Below are positions 44,975 through 52,358 of a stretch of 64,000 nt of DNA, in pieces. Origin of the DNA: Bacteroidales bacterium (GTDB lineage Bacteria > Bacteroidota > Bacteroidia > Bacteroidales > WCHB1-69); assembly GCA_017633255.1 (NCBI GenBank), contig JAGBPS010000024.1, positions 12,451-76,450 on the forward strand. The letters are read 5' to 3'. Below the pieces are notes generated by a model. That model did no database searches, was not told where the DNA came from, and saw only the letters and a program-made list of their open reading frames with translations. The stretch's first letter is position 1, and the number at the start of each line of letters is the position of its first letter. A program made the position numbers and the translations under genes.

Positions 44975-44982
44975 TTGTTTTG

Positions 44983-45057
44983 CGGTCCGGACGAGACTCG
45001 AACTCGCGACCTCCTGCGTGACAGGCAGGCATTCTAACCAAACTGAACTACCGAACC
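44983..45057 (-). tRNA. tRNA-Asp (anticodon GTC)
   Basis: The reverse complement reads GGTTCGGTAGTTCAGTTTGGTTAGAATGCCTGCCTGTCACGCAGGAGGTCGCGAGTTCGAGTCTCGTCCGGACCG. It has a 7-bp acceptor stem, anticodon stem CCTGC/GCAGG with loop CTGTCAC, and T-arm GTTCGAGTC. CCA is not encoded. Confidence 0.95.
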
Positions 45058-45690: not shown

Positions 45691-45698
45691 TACTTTTG
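45691..45698 (+). promoter_or_regulatory. -7 promoter box TACTTTTG for the island operon (further boxes at 45515..45522 and 45638..45645)
   Basis: TAnnTTTG match 25 nt upstream of the ATG at 45723. The tracked TTG start at 45696 lies inside this box. Confidence 0.5.
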
Positions 45699-45722
45699 CA
45701 TAGTCAACGAAATATTTTCCTC

Positions 45723-46787
45723 ATGGCAACCTGGCAGAAAATAAAGATACAACGCGAGAATGGTGAGCTTGCTGAAGCGCAAGCGCCAGTAATCGTATCG
45801 GCAAGTCGTAGCACAGACATTCCTGCGTTCTATGCCGACTGGTTCTTCCATCGTTTGAAGGTGGGTTATTCAGCGTGGACCAACCCTTTCAACGGAGTGA
45901 AGAGTTTCGTTTCGTACGAGAAATGCCGATTTATCGTGTTTTGGTCGAAGAATCCCGAACCGTTACTGTTGCATCTTGACGAGCTGAATGAACAAGGTAT
46001 CGGCTGCTATATCCAATATACTCTGAATGATTATGTCTCTGAAGGTTTGGAGAAAAATGTTCCAGCTTTAGAAAAGCGTATCGACACTTTCAAGCAACTT
46101 GTGGACAAATTTGGCAAAGGTCGTGTTATATGGCGTTTCGACCCTCTGATTCTGACAGACAAGATTAGTTTGGATGATTTGTTGCATAAGGTAGAAAACA
46201 TCGGTGATCAACTCCAGGGTTACACCGAGAAACTTGTATTCAGTTATGCCGATATAGCCGCCTATCGGAAGGTGAAATCTAATCTTGATAAAAACCATGT
46301 AAGCTATACGGAATGGACTACTAACCAGATGGAGGAATTTGCTAAAGAACTATCGAAACTCAACCAAAAATGGAACTATCAGCTGGCAACCTGTGGCGAG
46401 AAGATTGACATAGAGCGATATGGAATTCATCACAATCGCTGTGTGGACGATGATTTAATGATACGATTGGCCTATAAAGACAAGGCTTTGATGGATTTCC
46501 TCGGAGTAGAGATAAAAACAGTTGAAAACTCATTGTTTGGGGCAGAACCGATTCCCGCCAATGCCATCATGCTTAATGATACTCAATTCGCTATCAAGAA
46601 AAAAAACAATCAGGACAAAGGCCAGCGACAGTTTTGTGACTGTATGGTGAGCAAGGACATCGGTGAGTACAACACCTGTCCGCACCTGTGCGAGTATTGC
46701 TATGCCAATGTGAGCAAAGAAAATGCGACAAAGAATTATAAACAACATGAAATGAACCCATTGGGGGAAACTATAACTGGGAAATGA
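45723..46787 (+). CDS. DUF1848-family protein with C-terminal radical-SAM-like CX3CX2C cysteine cluster
   Basis: 354 aa from MATWQKIKIQ. The C-terminus reads QFCDCMVSKDIGEYNTCPHLCEYCYAN (C-P-H-L-C-E-Y-C). The overall pattern (SASRSTDIPAFYADWF..., RFDPLI) fits DUF1848 as I remember it. Confidence 0.7.
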   Translation: MATWQKIKIQRENGELAEAQAPVIVSASRSTDIPAFYADWFFHRLKVGYSAWTNPFNGVKSFVSYEKCRFIVFWSKNPEPLLLHLDELNEQGIGCYIQYTLNDYVSEGLEKNVPALEKRIDTFKQLVDKFGKGRVIWRFDPLILTDKISLDDLLHKVENIGDQLQGYTEKLVFSYADIAAYRKVKSNLDKNHVSYTEWTTNQMEEFAKELSKLNQKWNYQLATCGEKIDIERYGIHHNRCVDDDLMIRLAYKDKALMDFLGVEIKTVENSLFGAEPIPANAIMLNDTQFAIKKKNNQDKGQRQFCDCMVSKDIGEYNTCPHLCEYCYANVSKENATKNYKQHEMNPLGETITGK

Positions 46788-46788
46788 T

Positions 46789-48480
46789 ATGGTTATCGAA
46801 CAAAACACCAACTACGCTTACAAACTAAAGCATATAGACCGCCCGACTTTTGAGGCCGTAAGGGACTTGTCCATTGAATTCTATCGCAGTTTGCCTCAGG
46901 AGTTACAGGACGAATTGTTTGAGACCTTAAACCGTGGCGTTGATATCTTAGATAGCGAACCACAGCTGACGACTTACATGTTCTCATACGGAAAGATGCA
47001 TAAGGCCAAATTGGAATATGCTTTTGACAATCTGACAGAAGGTTTTCTTTTGCAAGATGAAATAAACATCATTGACTATGGCTGCGGGCAGGCCATCGGC
47101 ACGATGTGCTATGCGGATTTTCTTCGTAATAACGGATATACGCAACAGATTAAGACCATTACATTAATTGAACCTTCTGAAATAAGCCTGAAACGGGCTG
47201 CACTTCACATTTCAGCATTCTTCCCTAATGCAGAAATTAAGACCGTGAACAAAACTTTTGATGAGTTAAACAAAGATGACATCTATTATGAAGAAGACAT
47301 TCCTACGCTGCATATTCTTTCCAATGTTTTAGATATTTTGGATTTCGATATTAATAAGTTTTCAAAATTGGTAAAAAGCAGTTTGAACGGATTTAACCAA
47401 TTTGTATGTGTAGGGCCTTTTTTTAATGATTCCCAAAAAGATGATCGAATGGTTGTATTTCGATCACTTAGAAACGAAGATGAATATTTCAACAAGATTC
47501 TAGACAAATTCGAATTAACCCCAGAAAAAGCATGGACAGCACAAATACTCATTTTCTCAGTTGGAGAAATAGCCAAAACTAAAGTTCCTATTACAGTAAC
47601 AAACGAGGAGATTGAAAATGACATAGAAGATAAATGTGGTGTATATAGCAAAGATGGTCAAAAATTGCTAAAGTGTACAGACTCACATATGGGTACATAT
47701 ACAATAAAAAAAGGCACAAAGGTGATATGTAAGAATGCTTTTGAAGGTTGTTTGTTCAGTCAAATAATCATACCCGATTCAGTCGTAAAAATTGAATGGC
47801 AAGCTTTTTTGGCATGTGAATTTTTGCAAACAATCACCATACCCAACTCTGTTACAAGTATCGATTATAATGCATTTGGTTTATGTGAATCCTTGCAACG
47901 AATCAACATTCCGGATTCGGTTTCTTTTTTGGGACCATCAACTTTTCATCGATGCATCTCTTTACAACAAGTCAAAATTTCCAATTCGTTAACATGTATA
48001 GACTACATGACTTTTTGTGAATGCACTTCTTTAAATCAAGTCCTCATACCAAATTCAACCACAATTTTAGGTGATCATGTATTTTCAAATTGCAAATCCT
48101 TGAAACAAATAATAATTCCCAACTTGGTAACATATATAGGGATGGGTGCTTTTTCAAACTGCACATCTCTAGAGCACATTACTCTTTCCAATTCATTACA
48201 TAACATTGGACCTTTCGCTTTTGAAAAATGCCAATCTTTGAAAACAATTGCTTGCCCTGACTCAGTTAAGCACATATATGCCGGAGCATTTTCCGAGTGT
48301 GTAAACTTACAACAAATCATTATTTCTGATTCGGCAACTGAGATTGGTGACGAGATTTATTATGAAAATGTTTTTAATAATTGTATGTCTTTACGACAGA
48401 TTATCATTCCCAAAGGAAGTACGGAGAAATTTAGGGAAATGCTTGATAAAGAATTGTGGGATAAACTAATAGAGGAATAG
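46789..48480 (+). CDS. Cytoplasmic fusion protein: N-terminal class I SAM-methyltransferase-like domain + C-terminal BspA-type leucine-rich repeats
   Basis: 563 aa with no signal peptide. It has Rossmann motif I IIDYGCGQAIGT, an acidic beta-2 end TLIEPSE, and LSNVLD. From about residue 283 (47635..48433) there are ~10 units of ~23 aa of the form I.IP.SV..I...AF..C.SL... The ATG lies 1 nt after the DUF1848 stop. Confidence 0.7.
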   Translation: MVIEQNTNYAYKLKHIDRPTFEAVRDLSIEFYRSLPQELQDELFETLNRGVDILDSEPQLTTYMFSYGKMHKAKLEYAFDNLTEGFLLQDEINIIDYGCGQAIGTMCYADFLRNNGYTQQIKTITLIEPSEISLKRAALHISAFFPNAEIKTVNKTFDELNKDDIYYEEDIPTLHILSNVLDILDFDINKFSKLVKSSLNGFNQFVCVGPFFNDSQKDDRMVVFRSLRNEDEYFNKILDKFELTPEKAWTAQILIFSVGEIAKTKVPITVTNEEIENDIEDKCGVYSKDGQKLLKCTDSHMGTYTIKKGTKVICKNAFEGCLFSQIIIPDSVVKIEWQAFLACEFLQTITIPNSVTSIDYNAFGLCESLQRINIPDSVSFLGPSTFHRCISLQQVKISNSLTCIDYMTFCECTSLNQVLIPNSTTILGDHVFSNCKSLKQIIIPNLVTYIGMGAFSNCTSLEHITLSNSLHNIGPFAFEKCQSLKTIACPDSVKHIYAGAFSECVNLQQIIISDSATEIGDEIYYENVFNNCMSLRQIIIPKGSTEKFREMLDKELWDKLIEE

Positions 48481-48528: not shown

Positions 48529-49806
48529 ATGAAAATAAAAAAGTTAATAATCAACAACTTTCGAGCATTTAAGCATGCAGAAATAGATTTTGATGATTTT
48601 AGTTGTATTATTGGCAAAAACGACACGGGCAAATCAACAATCTTGGCAGCATTAGAATGGTTTTTTAATTCTAACAAGGAATTAGACGAAAACGATTTTG
48701 CAGCAGCTAGTTTTGATTGGAGTGAGTGCGAACATCCTGCATTTCATGATGAAATAGCAGGTGAAACATTTCAAGGAGAGACTGTTAAAGAGTTTATTTA
48801 TGATGGTTTTTGCATATCAGTTGATGTGTATTTCAGTGACGCAAACCTTCCAAATAGGACAGAAGAATCTGATTTCATCTTCAACCATGACTTTGTGTTA
48901 AAAGATGGTAATATCTGTATAAGTAAATACATGTATCACCCGTATAAAGATATAAATCATCCTTCTATTGGAAAACAGATGGGATATCGCATGAAAAATT
49001 GTTTTTTTGAAAAAATGCAAAAACCATTTTCCGATTGTACTATTGAAGAATTGAAAACAGTATATAATGAGATTAGGAACAACGCTGATGATTTATGCAA
49101 AAAATTATATCATTTAGAGGAAGAACGTCAAAATAAAAAAAATAGAGGTGTAGGGACATTGGCTATTAATACCGAAATACGAGATGAAGTATTAAGAATA
49201 AAAAGACTTATATGTTCTGAATTATATAATCACTACAGTAACAAAGGTGAAAAGACTTGTGAAAAATGGATGCCTTTTGATAATATAGATAGCATTGAAT
49301 TTCATTTCGGTTTTGATTTACCTCAATTTATATTATATACATCAAAAACGCCAACAAACGATTATCTGAACAAGTTATTTACACCATATAATGCCATCGG
49401 ATTATACAAGTCTATTGAAAAAGCCAAAGTACACACAACAGAAAAGCTTTCTGAATTCCTAAATTTAAATGGCCTGAATGAAAATATACATATTAAAGAA
49501 AATGAAAAAATAGACTTGTTTACAAAAGACAGTTTGATATTCAAACATAATGACTTGCCATTGAACATTCCTCTCAAAAACAGAGGGGAGGGTTTTCAGC
49601 TAAAGATAAAAAATGCTGTATTTAGGTTGCTTACAGAAACTCGGACAAGAAACCAAATCAATATCATTTTTGCTTTTGAAGAACCCGAAACACATTTGCA
49701 TCCGTCTGCTCAAATTGAAATGTATCAAACACTAAAGGCACTATCAGAAAATATTAATTATCAGGTGATTATTACAACACATTCCCCTTATATTGTTAAA
49801 AATTAG
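48529..49806 (+). pseudogene. ABC/AAA_15-type ATPase (OLD/PrrC/RecF-like), reading frame terminates 7 codons after the H-loop; probably continues in 49800..50273 after a -1 shift
   Basis: Walker A GKNDTGKST, signature-like NRGEGFQ, Walker B IIFAFEEPETHLHP, H-loop ITTHSPYIVKN-stop. The stop lies just after an A5 run (49798..49802). Confidence 0.6.
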
Positions 49807-49820
49807 CTCAAAACGACATA

Positions 49821-50273
49821 GTGCCTATTGTAGTAAAACAAGAAGCAGCCCAAGAATCAAAAATAAGCAAACTTGACGAACGTGTTTTGCCATACATTTC
49901 AATGAACGAAATCAATTATATAGCTTTTGAAGAGCCGTCGATAGAGTATCACATTGAATTGTATGGTTATATGCAAAACAAGTTGGACAAAACTGTTCGG
50001 GAATTAGACGATTGGCTAAAAGGGTGCGGAATCATCAATGGTGATAACCTATATGACTGGTATGATACGAGAAATTTAGAAAAAACAGAAGACAAAAAAA
50101 CTTTACCTTATTGTGTTCGTAATAATATTGACCATCCATTGGTTGATGATGCCTGCGATTCAAGAAAACATAATGCTTATGTGAATAACAGTCAATTCAA
50201 CAATAGTGATTTGATTAGAAAAAGCATTGAAATTATGCGGGAAGCGATAATCAACAATGTAGAATTTATATGA
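49821..50273 (+). CDS. 150-aa ORF: probable C-terminal continuation of the ATPase, carrying a HEPN-like Rx4H motif
   Basis: This frame is open from 49800 (KLAQNDIVPIVVKQE...). The motif CVRNNIDHP has CGT at 50118..50120 and CAT at 50133..50135. There is no independent ATG until codon 28. Confidence 0.45.
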   Translation: MPIVVKQEAAQESKISKLDERVLPYISMNEINYIAFEEPSIEYHIELYGYMQNKLDKTVRELDDWLKGCGIINGDNLYDWYDTRNLEKTEDKKTLPYCVRNNIDHPLVDDACDSRKHNAYVNNSQFNNSDLIRKSIEIMREAIINNVEFI

Positions 50274-50313: not shown

Positions 50314-50571
50314 ATGAACGATAACGAAAAAGCATTAATGCATCACTTTGAGATGATTGCACATTCGCAAGGAACGATGCAATTTCTATACAATTTGTTT
50401 GGCGGGGGCTTTGTTGCCAAACAACAAGCAAAAGAAACAATTGATTTTTGCATTGCAAAAATGAAACGGGATATTGAAAGCAATCCAAATTTGACACGAG
50501 AGCAAAAAGATCATGAGATTTCAATTAGAGAATGTTGGTTTAATGCAATGAAAAATTCATTGGGATTGTAA
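50314..50571 (+). CDS. Hypothetical small helical protein (85 aa), last gene of the island operon
   Basis: ORF only, co-directional, 40 nt after the previous stop, and followed by a hairpin. No recognisable motif. Confidence 0.4.
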   Translation: MNDNEKALMHHFEMIAHSQGTMQFLYNLFGGGFVAKQQAKETIDFCIAKMKRDIESNPNLTREQKDHEISIRECWFNAMKNSLGL

Positions 50572-50824: not shown

Positions 50825-50863
50825 CCATTCCTCAAATAGTTAGTGTATTTAAAAATTTGTGCG

Positions 50864-50871
50864 TAACTTTG
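50864..50871 (+). promoter_or_regulatory. -7 promoter box TAACTTTG
   Basis: TAnnTTTG match 9 nt upstream of the ATG at 50880. The tracked start at 50859 lies upstream of the box. Confidence 0.5.
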
Positions 50872-50879
50872 CAAACGAT

Positions 50880-52358
50880 ATGAACAAAACAACAATCATA
50901 GAATCATTGCTCAAGGGTGAGCATATCACACTGGAAGCAAAACGGGCCGAGAATGATTTACCCAGATCGGTTTGGGAGACCTATTCGGCATTCGCCAATA
51001 CACACGGCGGATTGATTTTGCTTGGTGTTATTGAAAATCTAAAGGAGAAAGACATTAACAAGCGTTTCACCATCACTGGCGTTGATGATGCCGAGAAAAT
51101 ACGCAAAGACTTCTGGAATATTGTCAATAATGCAGAGAAAGTGAACATCAATCTACTTAAGGACGAGGATGTTGAAACGATTGACATGGATGGTAAAACC
51201 GTAGTAGCTATTAATGTGCCAAGGGCTGACTACACGGTACGCCCTGTATATATCAATAACAATCCTCTTCGGGGAACTTTCAAGCGTAACCACGAGGGCG
51301 ACTATCACTGTGCTGAACACGAAGTAAGGATGATGATGCGCGATGCCAACGAGGCTGGTAACGATGGCATGTTACTGGAATATTACACGATGGATGATAT
51401 TGATATTCCAACTCTGGAGCGCTACAGAAACCATTTCAGCAGCAGACACCCTGATCATGTGTTTAACAGTCTTGAACATAAGTCATTTCTAAAAGAACTG
51501 GGCGGCTATCATGTTGACAGAAAAGACCAAAGCGAATGTTTAACCATGGCTGGTTTATTGATGTTCGGCAAAGGCCATCCCATTCGTGAACGCTTTGAGA
51601 ACCTGCGATTAGATTATATTGACAAATCTGGGTTGATTGGTGATCAGCGATACAGCGACCGCCTAACCTACGACGGCACATGGGAAAACAATCTCTTCAA
51701 TTTTGTTACAATGGTATTGCCCAAGTTGCTGAGAGATTTACCGAGACCATTCAAGATGGATGGTATAGTGCGTGAAGACGACACTCCTCAACACAAGGCT
51801 GTTCGTGAAGCTCTGACAAATGCCATTATCCACGCAGACCTGATGATAAACGGGGTTCTGAAAGTGGAGAAATATGACGATAAACTTGTACTCACAAACC
51901 CCGGATTACTGAAGCTCCCCGTAGAACAAATCTATGCAGGCGACGAATCGAGAGCAAGAAACCAGCACATGCAAACCATGTTCCGCATGATAGGATTCGG
52001 GGAAAACTTGGGATCTGGTTTTCCCTTAATATTGAGTGCCTGGAATGAGAAACACTGGCTAAAACCGGAGTTAATTGAACAGCCAGAGCTAATGCAGGTA
52101 AAACTCATTCTGACAATTGAGGCAAAAGATGTCACAAAAGATGTCACAAAAGATGTCACAAAAGAACTATCTGAAAGACAGGTGCTTATATTAGAATTGA
52201 TAGCAGAAAATGCTATGGCGACAATATCAGAAATGTCACAAAAGACAGGGGTTGCACCTAGAACCATTATACGAGATATTGAGCATTTGCAATCCTTGGG
52301 CATTCTTGTTCGAATTGGTGGCCGCAAGGAAGGTCATTGGGAAATTAGCAATTTATAG
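50880..52358 (+). CDS. AlbA_2 (Schlafen-like) DNA-binding domain / HATPase_c_4-like / C-terminal winged-HTH protein
   Basis: 492 aa from MNKTTIIESLLKGEHITLEAKRAENDLP...AFANTHGGLILLGV (AlbA_2 pattern). The C-terminal wHTH reads LSERQVLILELIAENAMATISEMSQKTGVAPRTIIRDIEHLQSLGIL. Confidence 0.7.
   Translation: MNKTTIIESLLKGEHITLEAKRAENDLPRSVWETYSAFANTHGGLILLGVIENLKEKDINKRFTITGVDDAEKIRKDFWNIVNNAEKVNINLLKDEDVETIDMDGKTVVAINVPRADYTVRPVYINNNPLRGTFKRNHEGDYHCAEHEVRMMMRDANEAGNDGMLLEYYTMDDIDIPTLERYRNHFSSRHPDHVFNSLEHKSFLKELGGYHVDRKDQSECLTMAGLLMFGKGHPIRERFENLRLDYIDKSGLIGDQRYSDRLTYDGTWENNLFNFVTMVLPKLLRDLPRPFKMDGIVREDDTPQHKAVREALTNAIIHADLMINGVLKVEKYDDKLVLTNPGLLKLPVEQIYAGDESRARNQHMQTMFRMIGFGENLGSGFPLILSAWNEKHWLKPELIEQPELMQVKLILTIEAKDVTKDVTKDVTKELSERQVLILELIAENAMATISEMSQKTGVAPRTIIRDIEHLQSLGILVRIGGRKEGHWEISNL
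52125..52160. repeat. In-frame 12-nt tandem repeat AAAGATGTCACA x3 (KDVT x3)
   Basis: Read directly. A fourth partial copy, ATGTCACAAAAGA, follows about 65 nt downstream. Confidence 0.9.

Follow-up and report, generated by a model that had tools for sequence, protein, structure and literature searches.

A frameshifted OLD-class ABC ATPase gene with a possibly HEPN-like helical tail in a putative anti-phage cassette of a Bacteroidales bacterium

We analysed a stretch of 64,000 nucleotides from a Bacteroidales bacterium (assembly GCA_017633255.1, contig JAGBPS010000024.1), referred to below as the window, in which an open reading frame (ORF) for an ABC ATPase at 48529..49806 is followed, in another frame, by an ORF for a helical tail with an Arg/His motif. 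Comparison with uninterrupted relatives indicates that both ORFs derive from a single gene, now frameshifted, whose intact form encodes an ABC ATPase ending in a helical domain. We give about an even chance to the reading that this is the inactivated copy of an OLD-class ATPase with a HEPN-like ribonuclease (RNase) tail, likely forming an anti-phage module together with leucine-rich repeat (LRR), methyltransferase (MTase) and DUF1848 partners encoded upstream.

Phage defence makes wide use of ABC ATPases to gate nucleases, as in OLD, Gabija, PARIS, Septu, PrrC and RloC. The combination of an ABC ATPase with a HEPN domain is already known from PrrC, RloC and the APECO1_4465 and ERFG_01251 types, and that of an OLD-type ATPase with a Toprim domain likewise. 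As far as we searched, neither a description nor a model in Pfam, PADLOC or NCBIfam was found for an OLD-type ATPase with the tail described here, or for its coupling to LRR and MTase/DUF1848 proteins.

One ATPase gene split by a frameshift

The product of the first ORF (425 amino acids) matched AAA_15 from end to end (Pfam, 4.3e-42, model 1-374 of 374). The best PADLOC models were AriA (1.3e-42) and Old (6e-35), accompanied by many GajA models, and the nearest solved relatives in a PDB sequence search were the OLD-family nuclease 6p74 and GajA. The ATPase motifs that the original prediction had read from this ORF were all located: Walker A, GKNDTGKS, at amino acids 29-36 (48613-48636), a signature-like loop, NRGEG, at 49579-49593, the Walker B/D-loop region, FAFEEPETHLHP, at 49669-49704, and the H-loop, TTHSP, at 49774-49788. 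AAA_13 was not matched by the ORF at E<=0.1 (Pfam). By these sequence comparisons the ATPase belongs to the OLD/GajA/AriA class (AAA_15) and not to the PrrC/RloC class (AAA_13).

The second frame opens at 49800; within it the listed ORF2 runs from a GTG at 49821 to 50273. It encodes ...TLPYCVRNNIDHP..., which includes the RNNIDH motif. A search with the joined protein retrieved dozens of uninterrupted proteins of 573-599 amino acids (P0014, P0016-P0063), which cover 98-100% of the joined protein at 50-76% identity, and each of the genome loci retrieved (L001-L010) encodes ATPase and tail without interruption in a single frame. At the junction intact genes read GTT AAA GAA TTA GC (V-K-E-L-A), whereas the window has GTTAAAAATTA where the intact homologues read GTT AAA GAA TTA, and one nucleotide has thus been deleted within the run of A residues (Table 1). 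The split form is present on seven contigs; four of these loci were read (L015-L018), which come from four different metagenome samples and are identical in DNA sequence at the break. Since the same deletion occurs in four metagenome samples, it is a real allele and not an assembly error. We also considered that the A5 run might be bridged by programmed frameshifting or transcriptional slippage, but judged this unlikely, given the shortness of the run, the TAA as -1 codon and the plain AAAGAA of intact relatives.

The PADLOC models for Old and GajA align with the intact homologue P0014 to about residue 450-459, in their ATPase parts only, which assigns strands 11-14 and 20-23 of the tail model described below to the ATPase fold. 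A 425-amino-acid product without these two strands is probably damaged as an ATPase, besides being unlinked from the tail. With the last ATPase strands removed and the tail detached by a single deletion, the system is probably dead in the window strain, and in an annotation of the window both ORFs should be called as one frameshifted pseudogene. The A-rich junction between ATPase and tail may be a recurrent hotspot of mutation or phase variation.

Interruptions were also seen at other loci. A second lineage, 52% identical, has a frameshift at the same V-K-[E/K]-L junction, in an A7 run (L030:1330-1450, to be compared with 49795-49806 in the window; one contig only). In a remote relative (L019:224-1976) ATPase (396 amino acids) and tail (131 amino acids) are separate ORFs; the gap of 167 nucleotides is Lys/Glu-rich in translation and has stops in all frames, and this locus is either a decayed copy or a natural split.

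A conserved Arg/His domain at the C-terminus

A match to Rx4H occurs in 12.7% of shuffled ORF2 sequences and a match to R[NDH]x3H in 2.5%, and the motif by itself is weak evidence; its weight comes from its conservation among relatives. An alignment of 104 homologues shows no variation in the tail at S, A, H, E and L of the block S-M-N-E-I-N-Y-I-A-F ... E-Y-H-x-E-L, at C, R, N, H and P of the block C-V-R-N-x-I-D-H-P, or at a late Ser. Conservation was quantified over 198 aligned domain matches in the numbering of the fused protein, where R531 and H536 correspond to R100 and H105 of ORF2. The original prediction had named conservation of the Rx4H residues among homologues beforehand as a point on which it could fail, and here it stands: R531 and H536 were found in 100% of the matches. 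N532 is conserved in 97% overall and in 88% of the remote subset, P537 in 96-97%, H475 in 98-99%, E461 in 97-98%, S566 in 98-99%, and E477, which lies in E-Y-H-x-E-L in predicted helix 2, in 77-94%. The polar pattern of the whole domain is E...Y-H-x-E-L ... h-R-N-x-I-[D/H]-H-P ... S-I, and a remote clade has IRNxIHHPEN at the motif. Members of that clade carry Y, F or W in place of the Cys that precedes the motif (C529), and for this reason a Cys/His zinc site in the tail was rejected.

A profile search of 1.84 billion cluster representatives returned 701 proteins at E<=1e-3, and among the best 150 of these 701 the tail is C-terminal in nearly all long proteins. Distant members scanned against Pfam carried an N-terminal AAA_15 domain in 10 of 10 cases, with nothing annotated C-terminally. 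The original prediction had also named, as a finding that would refute it, homologous ATPases that carry a Toprim or other domain in place of the tail. Nearly all homologues listed at E<=1e-10 with the C-terminus present have the tail motif (P0127 and P0128 are the exceptions), and family scans of the window protein and of full-length homologues gave no match to Toprim or OLD-like_TOPRIM; a Toprim domain was found only in a distant relative, P0132 (34% identity), so that on this point, too, the prediction stands except at this distance. Judged from these sequences, the family consists of an OLD-type ATPase with a helical Arg/His domain of ~120 amino acids and is widespread and unnamed. It adds to the OLD branch a widespread candidate effector domain, represented by 701 clusters at 50% identity and by no Pfam or PADLOC model. 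Because the polar set of Arg, Asn, two His, Glu and Ser is invariant across deep divergence, catalysis of some kind seems somewhat likelier than its absence.

HEPN domains have been described as a four-helix up-down fold with an insert between helices 2 and 3, in which an Rx4-6H motif with a polar residue (N, D or H) after the Arg is placed at the end of helix 3, helix 2 has a conserved acidic residue and helix 4 is often kinked (PMC3710099). For the tail, AlphaFold run on the alignment of 104 sequences gave a confident model (predicted local distance difference test score, pLDDT, 88.5; predicted template modelling score, pTM, 0.83). The original prediction had described the adjoining frame as a helical segment with CVRNNIDHP, and the model agrees in being mostly helical. 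Helices 35-43 and 48-62 are followed by an insert consisting of helix 66-75 and a β-hairpin at ~84-100; a short helix, 102-111, closes with RNNIDH and gives way to Pro and a loop; and helices 121-134 and 136-152 read as one long kinked helix. As modelled, the elements follow the order of the published HEPN description and the motif occupies the place given there, and the motif has the expected HEPN form, RN-x-I-[D/H]-H with a polar Asn after the Arg.

Several observations speak against a HEPN assignment. No HEPN or other consistent family was found in Pfam, PADLOC or NCBIfam for the window tail and 35 family members (E<=10), a PDB sequence profile search with the tail gave no match at E<=10, and Foldseek comparison of the tail model with PDB and BFVD returned noise only (template modelling score <0.2). 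When the tail family was compared by hhalign with the C-terminus of a PrrC-like protein, the probability was 0.25% and the motifs were unaligned, the comparator being a single sequence of low power. The motifs were also unaligned in the comparison with an alignment of RnlA, Paracoccus and LsoA sequences, a weak negative from a thin comparator. The first and third helices of the model span only 9-10 residues, and the tail may for that reason not form a classical elongated four-helix bundle; Ex3[KR], which is common in HEPN helix 2, is absent; and the additional invariant His (H475) is atypical of HEPN. The HEPN fold expected by the original prediction was thus returned neither by profile nor by fold searches, and the label is unproven. 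On the strength of model and alignment we read the tail as having a HEPN-like active-site signature in a compatible topology, and consider the chances of homology to HEPN itself, which is unproven, about evenly balanced.

The tail could also be another type of enzyme, for example a metal-dependent nuclease with a [D/H]-H dyad (His-Me/HNH) or a nucleotide hydrolase, in which case the target could be DNA. The alternation of D and H in the motif (IDHP or IHHP) recalls the [DH]H of HNH nucleases, a β-hairpin precedes the motif helix, the fold, without a neighbour in PDB or BFVD, may be new, and other ABC ATPases are paired with HNH nucleases (Septu, PD-T4-4). However, the dyad lies at the end of a confidently predicted helix and not on a strand of a ββα unit, flanking Cys pairs are missing and the variability of C529 in the remote clade argues against a Zn site, and the best-conserved residues, R and N, are not needed by HNH. 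We therefore regard an enzyme of this kind as quite unlikely and retain the HEPN-like RNase as the preferred, if evenly balanced, reading of the tail.

Partner proteins and comparison with known systems

The gene directly upstream of the ATPase encodes a protein of 563 amino acids. Its N-terminal 260 residues were modelled with a class I S-adenosylmethionine (SAM)-dependent MTase fold (AlphaFold, pLDDT 90, pTM 0.89), and Foldseek gave 582 matches to PDB at E<=1e-3, among which most of the best 50 are MTases. Named matches are the RNA or small-molecule enzymes Bud23, CmoA, METTL6 and HEN1. Motif I, DYGCGQ, is invariant among homologues, and the amino-methyltransferase motif [DNS]PP[YFW] is absent from the protein. 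Because this motif is missing and the closest folds are RNA or small-molecule MTases, the protein is not a type I restriction-modification (R-M) methylase. The C-terminal half is a BspA-type LRR module (Pfam LRR_5, 1e-57). Homologues of the MTase domain (P0259-P0378) carry LRR_5, Sel1, TPR or WG repeats or none, and such interchangeable repeats on an MTase-fold domain are a pattern typical of diversifying sensors. The LRR module is most simply seen as the surface that binds a trigger or serves as an adaptor. Within the rumen/gut Bacteroidales clade of the window it is found either on the upstream MTase-fold protein or at the N-terminus of the ATPase.

The first gene of the cassette encodes a DUF1848 protein with a radical-SAM-type CX3CX2C motif (CPHLCEYC, amino acids 328-335), which also matched the PADLOC model RTasDUF1848 (1e-40). 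No solved structure was matched by its sequence. The DUF1848 gene lies immediately 5′ of the MTase-like gene in L001, L002, L004, L008, L024 and L025, with two genes between them in L023, and it is found upstream of each MTase-domain homologue examined, whatever its repeats (L023-L025). DUF1848 genes are also paired with AAA_21 ATPases in L006 and L025.

The order DUF1848, MTase/LRR, ATPase-tail, small downstream gene is wholly or partly kept in 6 of the 10 genome loci (L001-L004, L007 and L008). Moreover, nine homologues are LRR-ATPase-tail fusions with the LRR at the N-terminus of the ATPase (P0065, P0070, P0075, P0076, P0099, P0135, P0136, P0154 and P0158), and one, P0134, is a fusion of MTase, LRR, ATPase and tail. 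From this conserved synteny and these fusions we conclude that the MTase/LRR gene is functionally tied to the ATPase. This upholds the original prediction in so far as it took the MTase-like neighbour for a partner, with a SAM-MTase fold, and corrects it where it drew the analogy to the DNA methyltransferase-containing complex of the classic PrrC locus. As a general rule the partnership fails, for distant members and LRR-ATPase fusions occur without an MTase gene. The fusions, and single-gene relatives that lack MTase and DUF1848, indicate that the ATPase-tail protein is the core, that the LRR is an add-on that probably contacts the ATPase and that the MTase/DUF1848 pair is a separable module. 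Couplings of the ATPase with an N-terminal LRR and with a conserved MTase-fold/DUF1848 pair are uncommon for the OLD branch. It counts against the proposed module that the pair is found without the ATPase and the ATPase without the pair, which makes a guard relationship optional at best.

In PrrC and RloC, as in the family described here, an N-terminal ABC-type NTPase is joined to a small C-terminal helical domain with an Arg...His motif; the genes reside in mobile islands, often beside Fic or RhuM (PMC3710099), and by analogy the likely logic is that of an ATPase gating a suicidal RNase. The locus could accordingly be read, much as in the original prediction, as a true PrrC/RloC-family anticodon nuclease that is silenced by an adjacent DNA methyltransferase complex, as PrrC is by EcoprrI. 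The ABC ATPase with a C-terminal Rx4H domain, the adjoining MTase-fold gene and the operon-like array agree with this, and synteny and fusions show that the partners cooperate. As a control we used a PrrC-like protein of 738 amino acids with an AAA_13 ABC ATPase, WP_000423308, from a P2-like prophage of E. coli APEC O1 (L029:45932-48148). It matched AAA_13 at 2e-111 over model positions 11-713 of 713, including the C-terminal nuclease end, while the window ATPase gave no such match at E<=0.1, and it ends in RYINRGSH, an Rx6H motif, in contrast to the Rx4H form RNxIDHP of the window family. The hhalign probability of 0.25% was obtained with the C-terminus of this control. PrrC is embedded in a type I R-M operon (hsdMSR), whereas hsdR and hsdS genes are absent from the window locus; the MTase without [DNS]PP[YFW] resembles RNA and small-molecule MTases; and many family members have no MTase neighbour. 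True membership in the PrrC/RloC family is thus extremely improbable. The PrrC/RloC layout that had been predicted is present as an arrangement of domains, with an ATPase of the AAA_15 type in place of the AAA_13 (Rad50/SbcC-like) type, and because AAA_15 was matched and AAA_13 was not, we take the likeness, as read from sequence, to be one of architecture and not of ancestry: the protein is an analogue of PrrC and not a member of its family. The control gene lies between prophage replication and portal genes, a known position of a phage defence hotspot. WP_000423308 is probably the published ABC-HEPN family APECO1_4465, for which the locus tag could not be confirmed.

OLD nucleases (P2 Old, class 1 and class 2 OLD and Gabija GajA) provide the best matches to the ATPase and share its layout, a single polypeptide with the ATPase first and the effector C-terminal. 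They differ in that the C-terminal domain is a Toprim, where the window family has the helical domain with RNxI[D/H]HP. P2 Old has recently been reported to be an abortive tRNase, and tRNases driven by OLD-class ATPases are now known (bioRxiv 10.64898/2026.07.10.737580). In PARIS, which consists of the AriA ATPase and the Toprim tRNase AriB, the likeness lies in AriA, the top PADLOC match, and covers the AAA_15 ATPase portion only; the concept of an ABC ATPase that senses a trigger and controls an RNA-cleaving effector might be common to both. A DUF4435/AriB gene was not found in the cassette or among the neighbouring genes scanned at related loci. Unlike in PARIS, the window effector is fused and is not a Toprim, and sensing appears to fall to an added LRR module and not to the ATPase itself. 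Finally, UG25 reverse transcriptases are fused to a methyltransferase-type domain and have a DUF1848 partner, the same pairing in a defence-type context (PMC9226505). They differ from the window locus, where a reverse transcriptase is absent and the MTase domain, with variable repeats fused to it, has a link to an ABC ATPase.

We infer from these comparisons an RNase chemistry, a target, a defence role and a direction of control that would be connected as follows. The LRR module, and possibly also the state of the MTase/DUF1848 pair, would report a phage cue, which the ATPase would turn into a conformational or oligomeric change. The ATPase would hold the tail off until this change of state releases or dimerises it, as in PrrC/RloC and, with a Toprim, in OLD and PARIS. 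The tail would then act as a metal-independent, HEPN-like RNase on tRNA, the most plausible target, or on another RNA of translation, and its cleavage would stop translation. The ATPase may in addition monitor the MTase/DUF1848 pair. Translation is stopped by tRNA cleavage with other nucleases in OLD, PARIS and retron-Septu and with HEPN in PrrC/RloC. A further-reaching account appears possible to us but doubtful. It holds that the locus belongs to a multi-part system against phages, hitherto undescribed, which gut and rumen Bacteroidales carry and which has single-gene relatives on mobile elements of Enterobacteriaceae. In this system a swappable repeat sensor (LRR, Sel1, TPR or WG) on the MTase-fold protein, together with the radical-SAM-like DUF1848 enzyme, would feed the OLD-type ATPase, the effector would be a new RNase fold that converged on the HEPN Arg/His site, and the A-run at the junction would serve as a recurrent on/off switch.

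Genomic setting of the cassette and its relatives

The relatives of the ATPase-tail gene are found in a defence-type context, judging by their neighbours: Fic, RhuM, PIN, type III R-M, HipA, TIR and integrase genes. The surroundings of the fusions examined contain R-M, PIN, Fic, RhuM, DUF3990 and PDDEXK genes and lack MTase and DUF1848 genes, and Fic or RhuM genes follow directly 3′ of LRR-ATPase-tail fusions. ABC-HEPN (PrrC-like) genes are likewise associated with RhuM and Fic (PMC3710099). Distant single-gene members adjoin hipA (L010) or a gene for Fic with a helix-turn-helix (HTH) domain (L006). On the Klebsiella IncFIB plasmid pA2508-emrE (L026:4855-6318) a member lies between insertion sequence elements with a TIR gene alongside, and in E. 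coli SCU-316 (L028:4998-6446) a member directly follows an integrase gene and has a capsid gene nearby. These enterobacterial members (WP_064155835 in Klebsiella, WP_233618192 in E. coli SCU-316) carry the motif FIRNHIHHPEN, and they make the predicted Arg/His site and the trigger accessible in laboratory strains. The loci related to the window cassette, by comparison, are all from genome bins of ruminant or gut Bacteroidales.

These contexts bear on the question of whether the tail is the effector at all. It might be non-catalytic, with a role in regulation, in the binding of a ligand or RNA or in oligomerisation, while the DUF1848/MTase pair, the small protein encoded downstream, or Fic or RhuM acts as the effector. 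Such a role would account for the lack of detectable similarity to any nuclease and for the Fic or RhuM genes directly after LRR-ATPase-tail fusions, and some HEPN-like domains are non-catalytic and merely bind (PMC3710099). We nevertheless consider it unlikely, since invariant Arg, Asn, two His, Glu and Ser residues are typical of an active site and not of a packing interface, and since the single-gene cases (L010, the Klebsiella plasmid and the E. coli gene beside an integrase) imply a self-sufficient protein.

In the window the cassette is part of a low-GC island of ~7 kb (~45.1-52.4 kb), which has a GC content of 30-40% compared with ~50% in the flanks, begins at a tRNA-Asp gene and stops before a pyruvate:ferredoxin oxidoreductase gene (Table 1). 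A non-immune alternative would be a housekeeping or stress complex for RNA modification or repair, composed of a radical-SAM-like enzyme, the MTase and the ATPase, that resides in the island by chance. The structures nearest to the MTase fold are indeed rRNA- and tRNA-modifying enzymes, and the DUF1848 protein has the radical-SAM-type cluster motif. However, the patchy distribution and the low-GC island at a tRNA gene, the free exchange of repeat modules (LRR, Sel1, TPR and WG), the toxin-antitoxin, R-M, TIR and integrase neighbours and the ready loss of the gene to frameshifts are hard to reconcile with housekeeping, and DUF1848, with a methyltransferase domain, also partners a defence-type reverse transcriptase (PMC9226505). 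A housekeeping role is therefore very unlikely, and an anti-phage function remains the preferred reading of the cassette.

Table 1. Positions of the cassette genes, domains, motifs and island features in the window
Feature	Position	Strand	Basis
tRNA-Asp (GTC), left edge of the low-GC island	44982..45057	-	ARAGORN; Rfam tRNA, 65.5 bits
DUF1848 protein, first cassette gene	45696..46787	+	Pfam DUF1848, 2.5e-92
Class I SAM-methyltransferase-fold domain, N-terminal part of the 563-amino-acid protein	46789..47574	+	AlphaFold, Foldseek
BspA-type LRR (LRR_5) module, same 563-amino-acid protein	47656..48480	+	Pfam LRR_5, 1e-57
OLD/AAA_15-class ABC ATPase, cut by the frameshift after residue 424	48529..49806	+	Pfam, PADLOC, PDB
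A5 run with 1-nucleotide deletion (AAAGAA to AAAAA) that splits the gene	49798..49802	+	Junction comparison with intact loci L001-L007
Tail frame: last two strands of the ATPase fold, then helical domain of ~120 amino acids, putative effector	49800..50273	+	AlphaFold
Conserved block M-N-E-I-N-Y-I-A-F ... E-Y-H-x-E-L, tail helices 1 and 2	49902..49961	+	Alignment
R-N-N-I-D-H (Rx4H), then Pro, at the C-terminal end of a predicted helix	50118..50135	+	Alignment, model helix 102-111
Small protein of 85 amino acids, directly 3′ of the ATPase-tail gene	50314..50571	+	tblastn in closest relatives
SLFN/AlbA_2, HATPase_c_4 and DeoR-type HTH gene, same low-GC island	50859..52358		Family scan

In the closest relatives the ORF for the 85-amino-acid protein lies ~40-50 nucleotides 3′ of the ATPase-tail gene, and proteins of 67-83% identity are encoded at the same position in L001, L002, L003 and L009 (tblastn). 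Pfam gave no family match above threshold for this protein, which could be a regulator or an antitoxin-like partner.

No integrase was found among the island genes scanned. In the Rfam scan the tRNA was the sole match, with nothing else of note on the minus strand, and scans for sigma-70 promoters and terminators did no better than on shuffled sequences, the models being ill-suited to Bacteroidales. To the left of the island lies an ispE-like kinase gene, assigned by eye from its translation. At the right end, the SLFN/AlbA_2-HTH gene is not conserved alongside the cassette in the related loci compared. An otherwise identical contig, L018, has an indel in this gene, which encodes 488 instead of 499 amino acids.

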